Source: Escherichia coli
GTDB taxonomy: Bacteria > Pseudomonadota > Gammaproteobacteria > Enterobacterales > Enterobacteriaceae
Length of the DNA: 64,000 bases
Direction: 5' to 3' (one strand)
NCBI RefSeq assembly: GCF_045037415.1
Contig: NZ_CP173438.1
Shown piece by piece: positions 47,401 to 53,400 of this stretch (within the stretch, counting starts at the first letter, position 1; the number at the start of each line of letters is the position of its first letter). Made by a program: the position numbers.

Positions 47401-50400
47401 GGTGTGATGGCACAGACCCGTGAGCATCTGGCGATTTTGCAGCTGACCGGTAACCCGATGCTGACAGTGGCGCTGACCAAAGCCGATCGCGTGGACGAAG
47501 CGCGTGTTGATGAGGTTGAACGCCAGGTAAAGGAGGTGCTGCGGGAATACGGTTTTGCTGAGGCAAAACTGTTTATCACCGCAGCAACCGAAGGTCGGGG
47601 AATTGATGCCCTGCGCGAGCATCTGCTTCAGTTACCAGAACGTGAACACGCCAGCCAACATAGTTTCCGCCTCGCGATCGACCGCGCATTTACCGTAAAA
47701 GGTGCCGGGCTGGTCGTCACCGGTACGGCGTTAAGCGGGGAAGTGAAAGTAGGCGATTCACTCTGGCTGACTGGTGTAAATAAACCGATGCGCGTGCGTG
47801 CGCTGCATGCGCAAAATCAGCCAACAGAAACTGCCCATGCCGGGCAGCGTATCGCGCTTAACATCGCGGGTGATGCGGAAAAAGAGCAGATTAACCGTGG
47901 CGACTGGCTGCTTGCCGATGTGCCGCCGGAGCCGTTCACACGGGTGATTGTCGAGCTTCAAACCCATACACCGCTGACCCAGTGGCAGCCGCTGCATATT
48001 CACCACGCCGCCAGCCACGTTACGGGACGTGTTTCGCTACTGGAAGATAACCTTGCCGAGCTGGTGTTCGACACGCCGCTGTGGCTGGCGGATAACGATC
48101 GCATAGTGCTGCGCGATATCTCGGCCCGCAACACGCTGGCGGGGGCGCGTGTGGTGATGCTTAACCCGCCGCGTCGCGGTAAGCGTAAGCCGGAATATCT
48201 GCAATGGCTGGCGTCTCTTGCACGGGCGCAGAGCGATGCCGATGCGTTATCTGTTCATCTGGAACGCGGCGCGGTTAACCTTGCGGATTTCGCCTGGGCA
48301 CGGCAGCTCAACGGCGAAGGGATGCGCGAACTGCTGCAACAGCCTGGCTATATTCAGGCTGGTTACAGCTTGTTGAATGCGCCAGTTGCCGCCCGCTGGC
48401 AGCGGAAAATTCTCGACACATTAGCGACTTATCATGAGCAACATCGCGATGAACCTGGTCCTGGGCGCGAACGTCTGCGACGTATGGCGTTGCCAATGGA
48501 AGATGAAGCGCTGGTACTGTTGCTGATTGAAAAGATGCGCGAAAGCGGCGACATCCACAGCCATCACGGCTGGCTGCATCTGCCGGATCATAAAGCGGGC
48601 TTCAGCGAAGAGCAGCAGGCCATCTGGCAAAAAGCAGAGCCGCTGTTTGGTGACGAGCCATGGTGGGTGCGTGACCTGGCAAAAGAGACGGGAACCGACG
48701 AGCAGGCAATGCGCCTGACGCTACGCCAGGCGGCCCAACAGGGGATAATTACTGCGATCGTCAAAGATCGTTATTACCGTAACGATCGGATTGTCGAATT
48801 TGCCAATATGATCCGCGATCTCGATCAGGAATGTGGTTCAACCTGCGCGGCGGATTTCCGCGATCGCTTAGGCGTAGGCCGCAAGCTGGCAATTCAGATT
48901 CTGGAATATTTTGACCGCATTGGCTTTACGCGTCGTCGTGGAAATGATCATTTATTGCGCGACGCATTATTATTTCCGGAAAAATAAGGAAATGATTAAT
49001 TCATAATAAATATGAATTAATACAAAATTTCTTATTAATGTTAAGAAGGCACGTTATTTGATGAATGTAACGTGCTTTTTATTAAAAATATTTTAATAAA
49101 CGGTAATATTGATCATATTTTCAAATGAAAATTCTCAGTAAGCTGCCCGCCCTTTTTTACACTTTCAGGAGTGTGTTATGGCAGCTTCAACCTTTTTTAT
49201 TCCTTCCGTGAATGTTATTGGTGCTGATTCATTGAATGATGCAATGAATATGATGGCAGATTATGGATTTACCCGTACCTTAATTGTCACCGACAATATG
49301 TTAACGAAATTGGGTATGGCGGGTGATGTGCAAAAAGCACTGGAAGAACGCAATATTTTTAGCGTTATTTATGATGGCACCCAACCTAATCCCACCACGG
49401 AAAACGTCGCTGCAGGTTTGAAATTACTTAAAGAAAATAATTGCGATAGCGTGATTTCCTTAGGCGGTGGTTCTCCACACGACTGCGCAAAAGGTATTGC
49501 GCTGGTTGCAGCCAACGGCGGTGACATCCGCGATTATGAAGGCGTTGACCGCTCTGCAAAACCGCAGCTGCCGATGATCGCCATCAACACCACGGCGGGT
49601 ACGGCCTCTGAAATGACCCGTTTTTGCATCATCACTGACGAAGCGCGTCACATCAAAATGGCGATTGTGGATAAACATGTCACTCCGCTGCTTTCTGTCA
49701 ATGACTCCTCTCTGATGATCGGTATGCCGAAGTCACTGACCGCCGCAACGGGTATGGATGCCTTAACGCACGCTATCGAAGCGTATGTTTCTATTGCCGC
49801 CACGCCGATCACTGACGCTTGTGCACTGAAAGCCGTGACCATGATTGCCGAAAACCTGCCGTTAGCCGTTGAAGATGGCAGTAATGCGAAAGCGCGTGAA
49901 GCAATGGCTTATGCCCAGTTCCTCGCCGGTATGGCGTTCAATAATGCTTCTCTGGGTTATGTTCATGCGATGGCGCACCAGCTGGGCGGTTTCTACAACC
50001 TGCCACACGGTGTATGTAACGCCGTTTTGCTGCCGCATGTTCAGGTATTCAACAGCAAAGTCGCCGCTGCACGTCTGCGTGATTGTGCCGCTGCAATGGG
50101 CGTGAACGTGACAGGTAAAAACGACGCGGAAGGTGCTGAAGCCTGCATTAACGCCATCCGTGAACTGGCGAAGAAAGTGGATATCCCGGCAGGCCTACGC
50201 GACCTGAACGTGAAAGAAGAAGATTTCGCGGTTCTGGCGACTAATGCCCTGAAAGATGCCTGCGGCTTTACTAACCCGATCCAGGCAACTCACGAAGAAA
50301 TTGTGGCGATTTATCGCGCAGCGATGTAATCATCATTCCCACAACGGCTGGCGAGTTGTCAGCCGCTTTTTCAACTATCTCAAAACTTGCTTTTTTTGAG

Positions 50401-53400
50401 ATAGTTTCTCTTTCCTGCTATACACTATCTCAATATTGCGCTTTTTTGAGATAAGCACATGGCTATCAAATCACCTCCCGGACTTATTCCTTTATCACAC
50501 TTATCGGGTGAGGAACTCCTGGCCCACCTGCGCTTTAACCGGGTTACCGATGAAAAAGGACGTTATCTGCCTTTTGATGAGTTGCAGTACCGCATCAAAA
50601 AAGGAGAAAACGTCGATGTGGCGTGGACGCTTACCCGTCTGGCGCGCAACGCGGCGATCCAACGAATTAATTATTGCAATGAAGCGGGTGAACAGGCCGG
50701 ATTCAACATTACCCCGGTGATTGCAGAAGCGTGCGAGCTTGTCGACAAACGTGCTACCGCGCTGGCGCTGAAAGATCAGACTGAACGGTTACGCGGGGCC
50801 GGAGCCGAGTTAAGCCAGTTACGCCTGGAAGAGCCGATCACCAGCTCCCAGCTGGAAGGTGCGAATACTACAACGCTGGTGGCGAGAAAAATGCTGGAAA
50901 CAGGGCGGTCGCCACGCACTGAAGACGAGCATATGATTGCGGGAAATGCCCGGCTGATGGCGGAAATTCCGCACTTACTCGCAGAACCGCTGACACCTGC
51001 GCTTATTCGCCAGTTACATGCCATTGGTATGGGTGGAATCAATGACGCGAAATATCGTCCGGGAGAATTTCGTGAAACAGATGATGTTGTGATCGCCGAC
51101 TATGATGGCAATATAGTGCATCAACCGCCCGCTGCGGCATTGTTACCGGAACGGCTGGAAAAAGTTTGCCAGTGGTTAAACAGCCATGAAGGGTATATTC
51201 ATCCGTTGGTCCGTGCCTGCATTCTGCATTTTATGCTGGCCCATGAACATCCGTTTCGGGATGGCAACGGGCGCACCAGTCGGGCGCTGTTTTACTGGTA
51301 TATGCTGAAATCGGGCTACGATGTCTTTAAATATATTTCCATCAGCCGTTTGCTTCATGCTGCACCGGTCAAATATGCCGCCAGCTACCAGTACACTGAA
51401 TCAGATGGTATGGATCTGACTTATTTCCTTGAATATCAGGCGGGTGTCATTAAACGTGCTCTGCAAAACTGGCAGCAGCATATCGATGAAATTACACAAC
51501 GAAGCGCAAAACTCGATAGTGTGCTGTTTAGCTCTGGTGTGCTTAAACGCCTGAATCCGCGCCAGGTAACGCTCCTGAATGTGATGCTCGCCAATCCGGG
51601 GAAAGAGTACACAGTTGCTGAAATTAGCGCGAGCTTGGGCGTCTCTGATAATACGGCTCGAGCTGATTTACGGACAATTGTTAAAGAAGGATTCGCGCAA
51701 GAGAAAAGAATTAATAACCAGCAAGCAGTGTACGTCGCACACTACCCGCTGTAGCTTTTGCCCGTAAATTCGTGATAGCCGTCGTAAAGCTGTTACCGAC
51801 TGGCGAAGATTTCGCCAGTCACGTCTACCCTTGTTATACCTCACACCGCAAGGAGACGATCATGACCAATAATCCCCCTTCAGCACAGATTAAGCCCGGC
51901 GAGTATGGTTTCCCCCTCAAATTAAAAGCCCGCTACGACAACTTTATCGGTGGCGAATGGGTAGCGCCTGCCGATGGCGAGTATTACCAGAACCTGACGC
52001 CGGTGACCGGGCAGCTACTGTGCGAAGTGGCGTCTTCGGGCAAACGAGACATCGATCTGGCGCTGGATGCTGCGCATAAAGTGAAAGATAAATGGGCGCA
52101 CACCTCGGTGCAGGATCGCGCGGCGATTCTGTTTAAGATTGCCGATCGAATGGAACAAAACCTTGAACTTTTAGCGACGGCAGAAACCTGGGATAACGGC
52201 AAACCCATTCGCGAAACCAGTGCTGCCGACGTGCCGCTGGCGATTGATCATTTTCGCTATTTCGCCTCGTGTATTCGGGCGCAGGAAGGTGGGATCAGTG
52301 AAGTGGATAGCGAAACCGTGGCCTATCATTTCCATGAACCGTTAGGCGTGGTGGGGCAGATTATCCCGTGGAACTTCCCGCTGCTGATGGCGAGCTGGAA
52401 AATGGCCCCCGCGCTGGCGGCGGGCAACTGTGTGGTGCTGAAACCCGCACGTCTTACTCCGCTTTCTGTACTGCTGCTAATGGAAATCGTCGGTGATTTA
52501 CTGCCGCCAGGGGTGGTGAACGTGGTCAATGGCGCAGGTGGGGAAATTGGCGAATATCTGGCGACCTCGAAACGCATCGCCAAAGTGGCGTTTACCGGCT
52601 CAACGGAAGTGGGCCAACAAATTATGCAATACGCCACGCAAAACATTATTCCGGTGACGCTGGAGCTGGGCGGCAAATCGCCAAATATCTTCTTTGCTGA
52701 TGTGATGGATGAAGAAGATGCCTTTTTCGATAAAGCGCTGGAAGGCTTTGCACTGTTTGCCTTTAACCAGGGCGAAGTTTGCACCTGTCCAAGCCGTGCT
52801 TTAGTGCAGGAGTCTATCTACGAACGCTTTATGGAACGCGCTATCCGCCGTGTCGAAAGCATTCGCAGCGGTAACCCGCTCGACAGCGTGACGCAAATGG
52901 GCGCGCAGGTTTCTTACGGGCAACTGGAAACCATCCTCAACTACATTGATATCGGTAAAAAAGAGGGCGCTGATGTGCTCACCGGCGGGCGACGTAAGCT
53001 GCTGGAAGGCGAACTGAAAGACGGCTACTACCTCGAACCGACGATTCTGTTTGGTCAGAACAATATGCGCGTGTTCCAGGAGGAGATTTTTGGCCCGGTG
53101 CTGGCGGTAACCACCTTCAAAACGATGGAAGAAGCGCTGGAGCTGGCGAACGATACGCAATATGGTCTGGGCGCGGGCGTCTGGAGCCGCAACGGTAATC
53201 TGGCCTATAAGATGGGGCGCGGCATTCAGGCAGGGCGCGTGTGGACCAACTGTTATCACGCTTACCCGGCACATGCGGCGTTTGGCGGCTACAAACAATC
53301 AGGCATTGGCCGTGAAACCCACAAAATGATGCTTGAGCATTACCAGCAAACCAAGTGCCTGCTGGTGAGCTACTCGGATAAACCGTTGGGGCTGTTCTGA

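Follow-up and report, generated by a model that had tools for sequence, protein, structure and literature searches.

Fic proteins with a wHTH (winged helix-turn-helix) domain at the C-terminus are toxic AMPylases now seen as anti-phage defense genes, type VI secretion system (T6SS) effectors, and regulators of translation, and how cells keep them harmless is only partly understood. In Yersinia pseudotuberculosis, the class II Fic-HTH protein CccR (YPK_0951) represses, as a dimer and via its C-terminal domain, its own promoter PcccR from an operator that was mapped by DNase footprinting as an inverted repeat near −35 and −10; dimerization is needed, and mutation of the palindrome abolishes CccR binding and raises expression (PMC9755527). 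In Shewanella oneidensis, dimeric, not monomeric, SoFic (SO_4266) binds the 100-bp stretch that precedes its own start codon (bioRxiv 10.64898/2026.07.09.737422). In Coxiella burnetii, CbFic2 (PDB 8cil) binds DNA via its wHTH, and DNA-induced dimerization switches its activity (PMC10628234). Here, we analyzed a Fic family gene that lies between yiaY and aldB in a 64,000-nucleotide stretch of the Escherichia coli chromosome (assembly GCF_045037415.1, contig NZ_CP173438.1), referred to below as the window, together with two dyads located directly upstream of its start codon. Based on sequence comparisons and on the systems described above, these dyads are probably tandem operators of the Fic gene's own promoter, with one Fic dimer for each TATCTCAA-N12-TTGAGATA site. 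Among the papers searched, none names Fic together with yiaY and aldB, and the locus offers a clean, testable putative operator for an uncharacterized E. coli member of the family.

Two dyads with one half-site precede the Fic gene

The original prediction for this region, made from the sequence of the window, was that two dyads sharing one half-site lie before the Fic ATG, that the first is a perfect 13-bp inverted repeat, and that the second ends close to the start codon. An inverted-repeat search recovered both dyads and bore out these claims: the arms of the first are fully complementary, and the second ends at 50453, 5 nt before the ATG, in a gap of 129 bp. The relevant features are as follows.

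50373-50406, unstranded: distal dyad O1 (dyad 1), AACTATCTCAAAA-N8-TTTTGAGATAGTT, with 13-nt arms (50373-50385 and 50394-50406) that are 100% complementary and 8 nt between them
50376-50383 and 50396-50403: core half-sites of O1, TATCTCAA and TTGAGATA, respectively
50424-50455, unstranded: proximal dyad O2 (dyad 2), ACTATCTCAATA-N8-TTTTGAGATAAG, from the search for inverted and direct repeats
50426-50433 and 50446-50453: core half-sites of O2, TATCTCAA and TTGAGATA, respectively, which are perfect 8-nt arms with 12 nt between them
50459-51754, plus strand: Fic family gene encoding 431 aa (Pfam Fic, 1.7e-19; PADLOC SoFic, 1.1e-43)

Both dyads share the form TATCTCAA-N12-TTGAGATA (50376-50403 and 50426-50453), and the arms of O2 can be extended inwards to 10 nt with one mismatch. 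O1 and O2 also form a 30-nt direct repeat with 80% identity and a 50-bp period, giving four half-sites with centers 20, 30, and 20 bp apart. The half-site TATCTCAA occurs eight times in the window compared to 1.59 expected, and four of these eight occurrences are in the gap upstream of Fic. The arrangement TATCTCAA-N4-20-TTGAGATA was found twice, both times upstream of Fic, compared to 0.00 expected in 100 shuffles, and no further dyad of this type is present elsewhere in the window.

In the mechanism that we propose, Fic would be a class II AMPylase-type toxin or defense protein that forms dimers, and the two C-terminal winged-helix domains of each dimer would be placed on one dyad. The half-site centers within a dyad are 20 bp, or ~68 Å, apart, which corresponds to roughly two helical turns; in apo CccR, the distance between the DNA-binding helices is reported as 70 Å. 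Occupancy of O1 would cover the putative −35 element TTGAGA, which is itself part of a half-site, while occupancy of O2 would cover the end of the −10 element, the predicted transcription start, and the ribosome-binding region. RNA polymerase would thus be blocked, and Fic would be held at a low, self-limiting level. Such negative feedback would be sensible for a protein that is toxic when over-produced.

The Fic protein has a predicted C-terminal wHTH domain

The features of the protein, all on the plus strand, are as follows.

50843-50860: inhibitory motif SSQLEG (residues 129-134)
51248-51283: Fic motif HPFRDGNGRTSR (residues 264-275)
51539-51751: C-terminal wHTH region, from an AlphaFold2 model, Foldseek, and a profile of the C-terminal domain (CTD)
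51644-51685: predicted recognition helix SDNTARADLRTIVK

The Fic active-site motif HxFx(D/E)GNGRxxR is present as HPFRDGNGRTSR. The class II inhibitory motif (S/T)xxxE(G/N) is present in the same chain, N-terminal to the Fic motif, as SSQLEG, and is invariant in the alignment; the confidence of the AlphaFold2 model is low at residues 114-140 (50798-50878; very low), i.e., in the segment with SSQLEG, so that the inhibitory helix is a putative one. The model has a predicted local distance difference test score (pLDDT) of 83, and its C-terminus (residues 367-427) consists of helices at residues 367-378, 386-393, and 397-409 followed by a two-strand wing. The top Foldseek matches in the PDB, over ~360 columns, were 8cil (CbFic2), 3zcn/3eqx (SoFic), 4rgl (Dde_2494), and 7xux, which is CccR going by its date and description. 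When the PDB was searched with the CTD profile, the CTD of CbFic2 matched best (4e-10), followed by the wHTH repressors HrcA, MarR, and BlaI, and SoFic matched weakly; 7xux was not matched by this profile, and a phmmer search of the PDB with the CTD gave nothing relevant. A search of a large protein collection with the CTD only returned just five near-identical fragments, and Pfam HTH matches of the C-terminus were weak. The PADLOC SoFic model PDLC03963 (E = 1.1e-43) aligned residues 96-427 with model positions 30-351 of 361. The NCBIfam SoFic equivalog scored 40 bits compared to a cut-off of 550, and, therefore, the E. coli Fic is not a SoFic orthologue. Judged from its motifs and the modeled fold, the protein is a class II Fic with a C-terminal wHTH of the SoFic/CccR/CbFic2 type.

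Residues 1-95 (50459-50740) are modeled with pLDDT of >90 as helices and a small sheet, have no Pfam match, and are absent from SoFic and CccR. A role in anti-phage defense is only suggestive, given the variable presence of the gene and the toxin-antitoxin (TA), abortive infection, and integrative and conjugative element neighbors of its orthologues in other genera.

A different reading, which takes its lead from the proposal made for DNA-induced dimerization of CbFic2 and which we regard as doubtful, is that the operator is also an allosteric parking place on which Fic dimers sit at the half-sites in an inactive or de-AMPylating state, and from which phage-induced release frees the toxin. Were the contact with DNA lost during infection, through breakdown of the chromosome, competing phage DNA, or dilution, the outcome would be both a de-repressed gene and an active toxin, and the cis element would be part of sensing in a single-gene defense system. 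Matched protein/operator pairs would serve to ask whether DNA binding controls the enzyme activity.

The dyads travel with Fic orthologues

As further evidence bearing on autoregulatory operators, we fetched individual orthologues with 42-76% identity from Pseudescherichia, Pantoea, Salmonella (two lineages), Photorhabdus, Phytobacter, Enterobacter, Kosakonia, Rahnella, Klebsiella, Xenorhabdus, and Pseudomonas syringae. The same half-sites are present before orthologues (43-76% identity) in ~20 unrelated genomic contexts. The neighbors include VF530 and NasR (Pseudescherichia), DUF421 and GST (Pantoea), an autotransporter and AcaB (Salmonella), HicAB (Photorhabdus), HipBA (Phytobacter), and, in others, folD, udp/rmuC, fumarase, and DUF927, and no neighboring gene is conserved on either side of the Fic orthologues (13 to ~20 contexts). 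All enteric orthologues are preceded by TATCTCAA-N12-TTGAGATA, with a few mismatches at most, starting 32-36 nt before the ATG. This proximal dyad is present in every orthologue examined, while a distal copy, 49-51 bp upstream of the proximal dyad, is present in about half of the enteric orthologues and was seen in Pseudescherichia, Pantoea, Salmonella, and metagenomic orthologues. The P. syringae orthologue has the variant half-site TATTTCAA.

Using CTATCTCAA-N12-TTGAGATAG, we also scanned metagenomes blindly, obtaining 108 stretches, and 80 of these were retrieved. In 40 of these 80 loci, the dyad is followed after 5-8 nt or 53-55 nt by the start of a Fic orthologue or remnant, and 11 of those 40 are not from E. 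coli. The remaining 40 loci have no Fic gene within 2.5 kb and collapse to 14 independent sequences; 23 of them (L105 and 22 others; human-gut contigs with ~35% G+C) represent one widespread coding sequence starting MAISKLQLVEIEFPE, and this match, which is due to chance, makes the raw number of loci without Fic too high. By our estimate, made for a collection of unstated size, a pattern with 18 specified bases would give matches of this order (14 independent sequences) by chance. These data show that the dyads travel with the Fic gene.

We note several further observations on individual loci. Two metagenome contigs with ~60% G+C (L133, 2936-2965; L165, 108-137) have a dyad AAACTATCTCAA-N12-TTGAGATAGTTT just downstream of cysH and no Fic gene in the available DNA; this dyad may be an orphan operator after gene loss or a chance match. 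In L104 (419-461), a dyad with a third half-site (CTATCTCAAA CTATCTCAAA ... TTTGAGATAG) is flanked by a LysR-like fragment and the 3′ end of hipA, and Fic is absent from its vicinity; in Phytobacter (L091), the Fic gene adjoins hipBA. Three metagenomic loci (L106, L166, and L171) have both dyads or the proximal one intact and just the first 34-80 Fic codons recognizable, and they are apparent pseudogenes or truncations with preserved operators. Xenorhabdus has a second, shorter Fic-HTH gene (L101, 4206-5216, minus strand; 336 aa) ~840 bp downstream of the orthologue and on the opposite strand.

Half-sites track the recognition helix across the Fic-wHTH family

Distant homologues (22-42% identity) were collected by a peptide-pattern scan of genome contigs; none of the close enteric orthologues was among the matches listed. 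In 27 of 60 diverse Fic-wHTH loci among these matches, a perfect dyad whose arms measure 8 nt or more is located at most 150 nt upstream, compared to 2.1 ± 1.4 in dinucleotide shuffles. The dyads of distant homologues resemble O1 and O2 in geometry and have other half-sites, which vary by clade. The half-sites correspond to the predicted recognition helices: SDNTAR/SENTAR occurs with (T)ATCTCAA or ACTCAA, and SDNTAR with TATCTCAA; AYNTAA/SYNTAS (Pseudomonas) with TATTTCAA or TGTCTCA; AYATARADLL with TATCAA; SNQTAK (Akkermansia) with GCTCCTAA; and SxDTALRDI of the short SoFic-like group with GCGGYGAA/TTCRCCGC. The helix xYQTARTDLL occurs with TACTAA at seven or more loci, which span several phyla and include an archaeon; the taxa in which xYQTARTDLL/xYETAR goes with (C)TACTAA(T) are Pseudomonadales, Gemmatimonadota, Planctomycetota, Phycisphaerae, Patescibacteria, and a Methanoperedens archaeon. 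For pairs with <50% overall identity, helix identity and half-site similarity were correlated (Mantel r = 0.197, reached by 1 of 2,000 permutations), and the mean best half-site match rose from 4.3 to 5.7 of 8 with helix identity.

This tracking, while supportive and not proof, is hard to explain unless Fic's own wHTH reads the dyad. It suggests that self-repression via a cognate dyad may be a general property of the Fic-wHTH family and that operator specificity may be readable from the helix, which would make operators and possible trans targets predictable for hundreds of Fic-wHTH genes. If specificity follows the helix, AYQTAR would go with the operator half-site CTACTAAT and not TATCTCAA. 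A more tentative reading is a simple recognition code valid for the whole family, with helix residue N, Q, A, or D matched to a base triplet.

The short SoFic-like subfamily (~350-380 aa) has G+C-rich dyads, TTCGCCGC-N7-GCGGCGAA and TTCACCGC-N7-GCGGTGAA, located 4-52 nt from the start codon (L040, L046, L055, L056, L061, L063, L065, L072, L074, L079, and L080).

These comparisons also bear on whether the dyads could be operators of another regulator that is encoded elsewhere in the genome. In favor of such a regulator, ~550 Fic-less E. coli genomes keep one dyad, and a few consensus-like orphan dyads have no Fic gene nearby, e.g., those next to cysH. However, no other gene is conserved beside the dyads in ~20 contexts, dyads precede Fic-wHTH genes in distant phyla and archaea with half-sites that track Fic's own helix, and the orphan copy in E. 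coli has a mutated arm (GAGAGAG) in four of four orphan-allele loci inspected. We therefore give a separate regulator little credence and favor recognition of the dyads by Fic.

The arms are conserved as a probable protein site and overlap a predicted promoter

Over 35 sites, the arms contain 1.8 bits of information per position, while the spacer contains 0.65 bits that reflect only an A/T bias; the 12-bp spacing is found in every site, and the spacer sequence drifts. Among 29 sites, 87.1% of the cells were paired compared to 87.2% after shuffling of the 3′ letters, and covariation was not significant. Because pairing does not exceed the level given by conservation, the palindromy follows from conservation of the sequence of each arm. 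Single-arm changes are uncompensated in Enterobacter, Rahnella, and O2 of Pantoea. Comparison of 10 upstream variants from E. coli revealed differences in the terminator, the spacers, and the inter-dyad stretch and no change in any of the four half-sites. Conservation of the arms without covariation argues for a site read by a protein over an RNA hairpin. In L160, the distal dyad (starting at −82 from the ATG) has a mirror change in both arms (TATCGCAA ... TTGCGATA) that keeps the palindrome; L174 has the left-arm change only of this pair.

The dyads also have a fixed relation to a predicted promoter, with the following features, all on the plus strand.

50396-50401: putative −35 element TTGAGA, read from the sequence, inside the right arm of O1
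50416-50426: putative extended −10 region TGcTATACA, read from the sequence, which abuts or overlaps the left arm of O2
50448-50451: GAGA as a possible, weak Shine-Dalgarno sequence within the right arm of O2, located 8-11 nt before the ATG and assigned from this position

In orthologues, a consensus scan called promoters at the corresponding position, namely TTGAGA-18-TATACT (Salmonella, L174), TTGCCA-18-TAAAAT (Photorhabdus), and TTGACG-16-TAAACT (Rahnella). In loci with two dyads, the −35 element is TTGAGA of the right arm of the distal dyad, and the extended left arm of the proximal dyad (ACTATCTCAA) begins, at every locus, with the final bases of the −10 element. With the −10 element abutting the proximal dyad, the predicted start, which would be near 50431-50433 in the window, is at the end of a half-site, and the whole 5′-untranslated region (5′-UTR) of ~26-30 nt would be operator. 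Thus, the half-sites of the inverted repeats appear to overlap or abut −35 and −10 as in a CccR-type operator, with the promoter called in orthologues only. This geometry, with −35 in O1 and −10 abutting O2, more simply explains the distance of 49-51 bp between the dyads. Strict helical phasing, as read from the 20/30/20-bp spacing of the half-sites, was dropped, because this distance is out of phase at 10.5 bp per turn.

Could the dyads act as RNA? In that case, dyad 1 would serve as a back-up terminator or as an insulator that stops transcription reading through from yiaY, and dyad 2 would be a 5′-UTR hairpin that hides the ribosome-binding site. The RNA fold of dyad 1 (−14.1 kcal/mol; z = −6.7) has a T-rich tail and was flagged as terminator-like in a scan, and the sole Shine-Dalgarno-like sequence is in the right arm of dyad 2. 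Against this, the T-tail is specific to E. coli and missing in orthologues; the RNA fold of dyad 2 is a weak one (−7.3 kcal/mol; z = −2.35); the −10 element overlaps the left arm of dyad 2, so that the predicted transcript begins at the end of that arm and lacks structure (z = +0.5); and the lack of covariation beyond conservation over the 29 sites, the uncompensated changes in one arm, and a loop fixed at 12 nt with drifting sequence are not those of a hairpin. An Rfam search of 50250-50560 gave no match at E ≤ 1. A function as RNA hairpins is, therefore, improbable, and operators of the Fic promoter remain our preferred interpretation. The claim of the original prediction that dyad 1 is unlikely to be a terminator agrees with this: dyad 1 passed a loose scan for intrinsic terminators with 3 G-C pairs and was rejected, because the tail is not conserved, covariation is lacking, and yiaY has a separate hairpin, as follows.

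50345-50372, plus strand: intrinsic terminator of yiaY, with a G+C-rich stem (50345-50365; 9 pairs, of which 6 are G-C) followed by a T-run (CTTTTT); −14.2 kcal/mol

In the window, the gene order is selA-selB-yiaY-[Fic]-aldB, and the 129-bp gap from the yiaY stop (50329) to the Fic ATG (50459) contains this terminator followed by both dyads. The terminator marks the left boundary of the Fic cassette and lies outside the operator.

Fic-less alleles of E. coli keep remnants of the dyads

The Fic gene is present in 1,572 of 5,426 complete E. coli genomes (~29%), including strains of O127:H6 (enteropathogenic E. coli) and O157:H7. We identified three E. coli alleles of the yiaY-aldB spacer: the Fic+ allele with both dyads (1,572 genomes); a Fic-less orphan allele (FCI1 type; ~550 genomes), in which dyad 1 and the first bases of dyad 2 are fused to TGTAAT...; and a K-12 type allele, in which only AACTATCTC is kept, fused to TGTAAC.... 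The original prediction had counted palindromes in genomes lacking the Fic gene as evidence against an operator. Such palindromes do exist, as the one copy in ~550 genomes, and the refutation does not follow from them, as they are at the same locus, in a deletion scar, and with a mutated arm: the Fic-less alleles look like successive deletions of an ancestral cassette, and palindromes in such scars are no argument against operators.

Both Fic-less forms (L001, 680-760; L002, 680-790) break right after TATCTC, of dyad 1 in the K-12 type and of dyad 2 in the FCI1 type, and resume at TGTAA(C/T)CCTTGCCCG. Compared with the Fic+ sequence around the Fic stop (CTGTAGCTTTTGCCCG; window 51740-51780), 3 of 10 bases in the resumed stretch are different, and the inter-dyad stretch of the FCI1 type is 14 bp shorter than that in the window (50330-50460); therefore, the deletions would have arisen from a diverged cassette allele and were not simple. 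In the Fic-less strain EM03-18-08 (L213, ~100-135), a comparison with L002 and L212 showed that a second mutation, in the left arm of the orphan dyad (AACTCTCTCAAAA), is the exact mirror of that in the right arm (TTTTGAGAGAGTT) and makes the 13-bp palindrome perfect again. Quasi-palindrome template switching is a known mutational mechanism, and this double mutation could reflect such a switch rather than selection. In E. coli O102:H6 (L214, 1-200), an IS200C transposase gene is directly upstream of the orphan dyad and replaces the end of yiaY.

The 13-8-13 geometry of dyad 1, which resembles the loxP and FRT core sites, its position exactly at the left edge of a segment whose presence varies among E. 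coli genomes, and the junctions of both Fic-less alleles right after TATCTC of dyad 1 or dyad 2 would fit recombination or mobility sites, or scars, of a single-gene Fic cassette. This explanation is very improbable: there is no recombinase gene in the cassette or its neighborhoods, both dyads are 5′ with none at the 3′ end, only dyad 1 has the 13-8-13 geometry, the deletion junctions are inside an arm and not at spacer edges, the position relative to promoter and ATG is fixed within a few nucleotides across orthologues, and the half-sites track the Fic helix. A tyrosine-recombinase core site was rejected on the lack of a recombinase and of a 3′ site and on the junctions within an arm. A type II TA operon was rejected, because no neighboring gene that could be an antitoxin is conserved on either side in 13 contexts and the dyads occupy the gap that precedes the ATG.

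DISCUSSION

The original prediction had suggested an operator for a dimeric protein, possibly read by the HTH of Fic itself. Co-travel with the gene, conservation of arms and spacing, overlap with the predicted promoter, and tracking of the helix lend support to this proposal, as does, by analogy, the binding of CccR and SoFic to their own promoters. Several observations weigh against it. The consensus scan calls no promoter in the E. coli window itself. There, a 2-nt insertion leaves as −10 element either TATACA (50419-50424; 17-nt spacer), which lacks the conserved final T, or TACACT (50421-50426; 19-nt spacer). The absent call is the weakest point of the local argument; the promoter may be a weak one. 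The one dyad kept in the ~550 Fic-less genomes also counts here, though with its mutated arm. The correlation between helix and half-site is modest (r ~0.2), has no correction for phylogeny, and involves a heuristic choice of the best dyad. Among the related systems, the 10-bp boxes of CccR are 26 bp apart, compared to the 16 bp that separate TATCTC from GAGATA, the cores of the E. coli dyads, and CbFic2 binds random DNA with high affinity and no evident sequence specificity (PMC10628234).

Type II TA operons such as phd-doc, in which Doc has the Fic fold, resemble the locus in that the toxin is kept low at palindromic operators overlapping its own promoter and in that they are small, mobile, and variably present modules. 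In contrast, the E. coli Fic would carry both the inhibitory helix and the DNA-binding domain in the toxin polypeptide, and it has no conserved neighbor. CbFic2 is the best structural match and the only Fic protein with a significant match to the CTD profile (4e-10), while CbFic2 is not known to have a specific operator or to regulate itself.

SoFic, which belongs to a PADLOC defense family, shares the Fic plus wHTH architecture and the fold; it differs in its half-site, and the E. coli Fic is far below the cut-off of the NCBIfam equivalog. In our own reading of the 300-bp SoFic promoter fragment (Table S2 of bioRxiv 10.64898/2026.07.09.737422), we found five copies of ATGTCGAT/ATCGACAT, of which three are in the best-bound fragment F1 and one pair forms the tight palindrome ATGTCGAT-TGA-ATCGACAT; the words "palindrom" and "operator" are absent from the main text of that paper. 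Judging by their sequence, these repeats may be the SoFic operator.

CccR differs from the E. coli Fic in several respects: the two share only ~17-18% identity, CccR has 380 aa and lacks the N-terminal extension of ~70-95 residues, it is a T6SS effector targeting FtsZ, and it has a single pair of boxes, whereas the E. coli Fic has two tandem dyads of 8-mers 12 bp apart with centers at 20 bp. The CccR boxes are printed as AGATAATCAT-N26-ATGATAATCT, and the primers in Supplementary Data 3 give the sequence just before the cccR ATG as TTTACATGTTTGAGATAATCTAACTTT (PMC9755527). These primers place TTTGAGATAATCT 9 nt before the cccR ATG, and the proximal CccR box would thus contain TTGAGATAA, i.e., the same core as the E. 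coli half-site at a similar distance from the ATG. We note that the printed boxes are not exact reverse complements and that the primers imply another sequence for the proximal one (GAGATAATCT); the correct pair may be AGATTATCTC ... GAGATAATCT. CccR and the E. coli protein are alike in being class II Fic proteins whose N-terminal part contains the inhibitory helix motif and whose C-terminus is an HTH, in the alignment of the E. coli model with 7xux by Foldseek over ~360 columns, and in an operator, putative for E. coli, just before the ATG with the core GAGATAA/TTATCTC common to both, that of CccR being read from the primers. We regard the finding as solid and well supported and, to a specialist, not surprising, the arrangement having already been shown experimentally for CccR of Yersinia.

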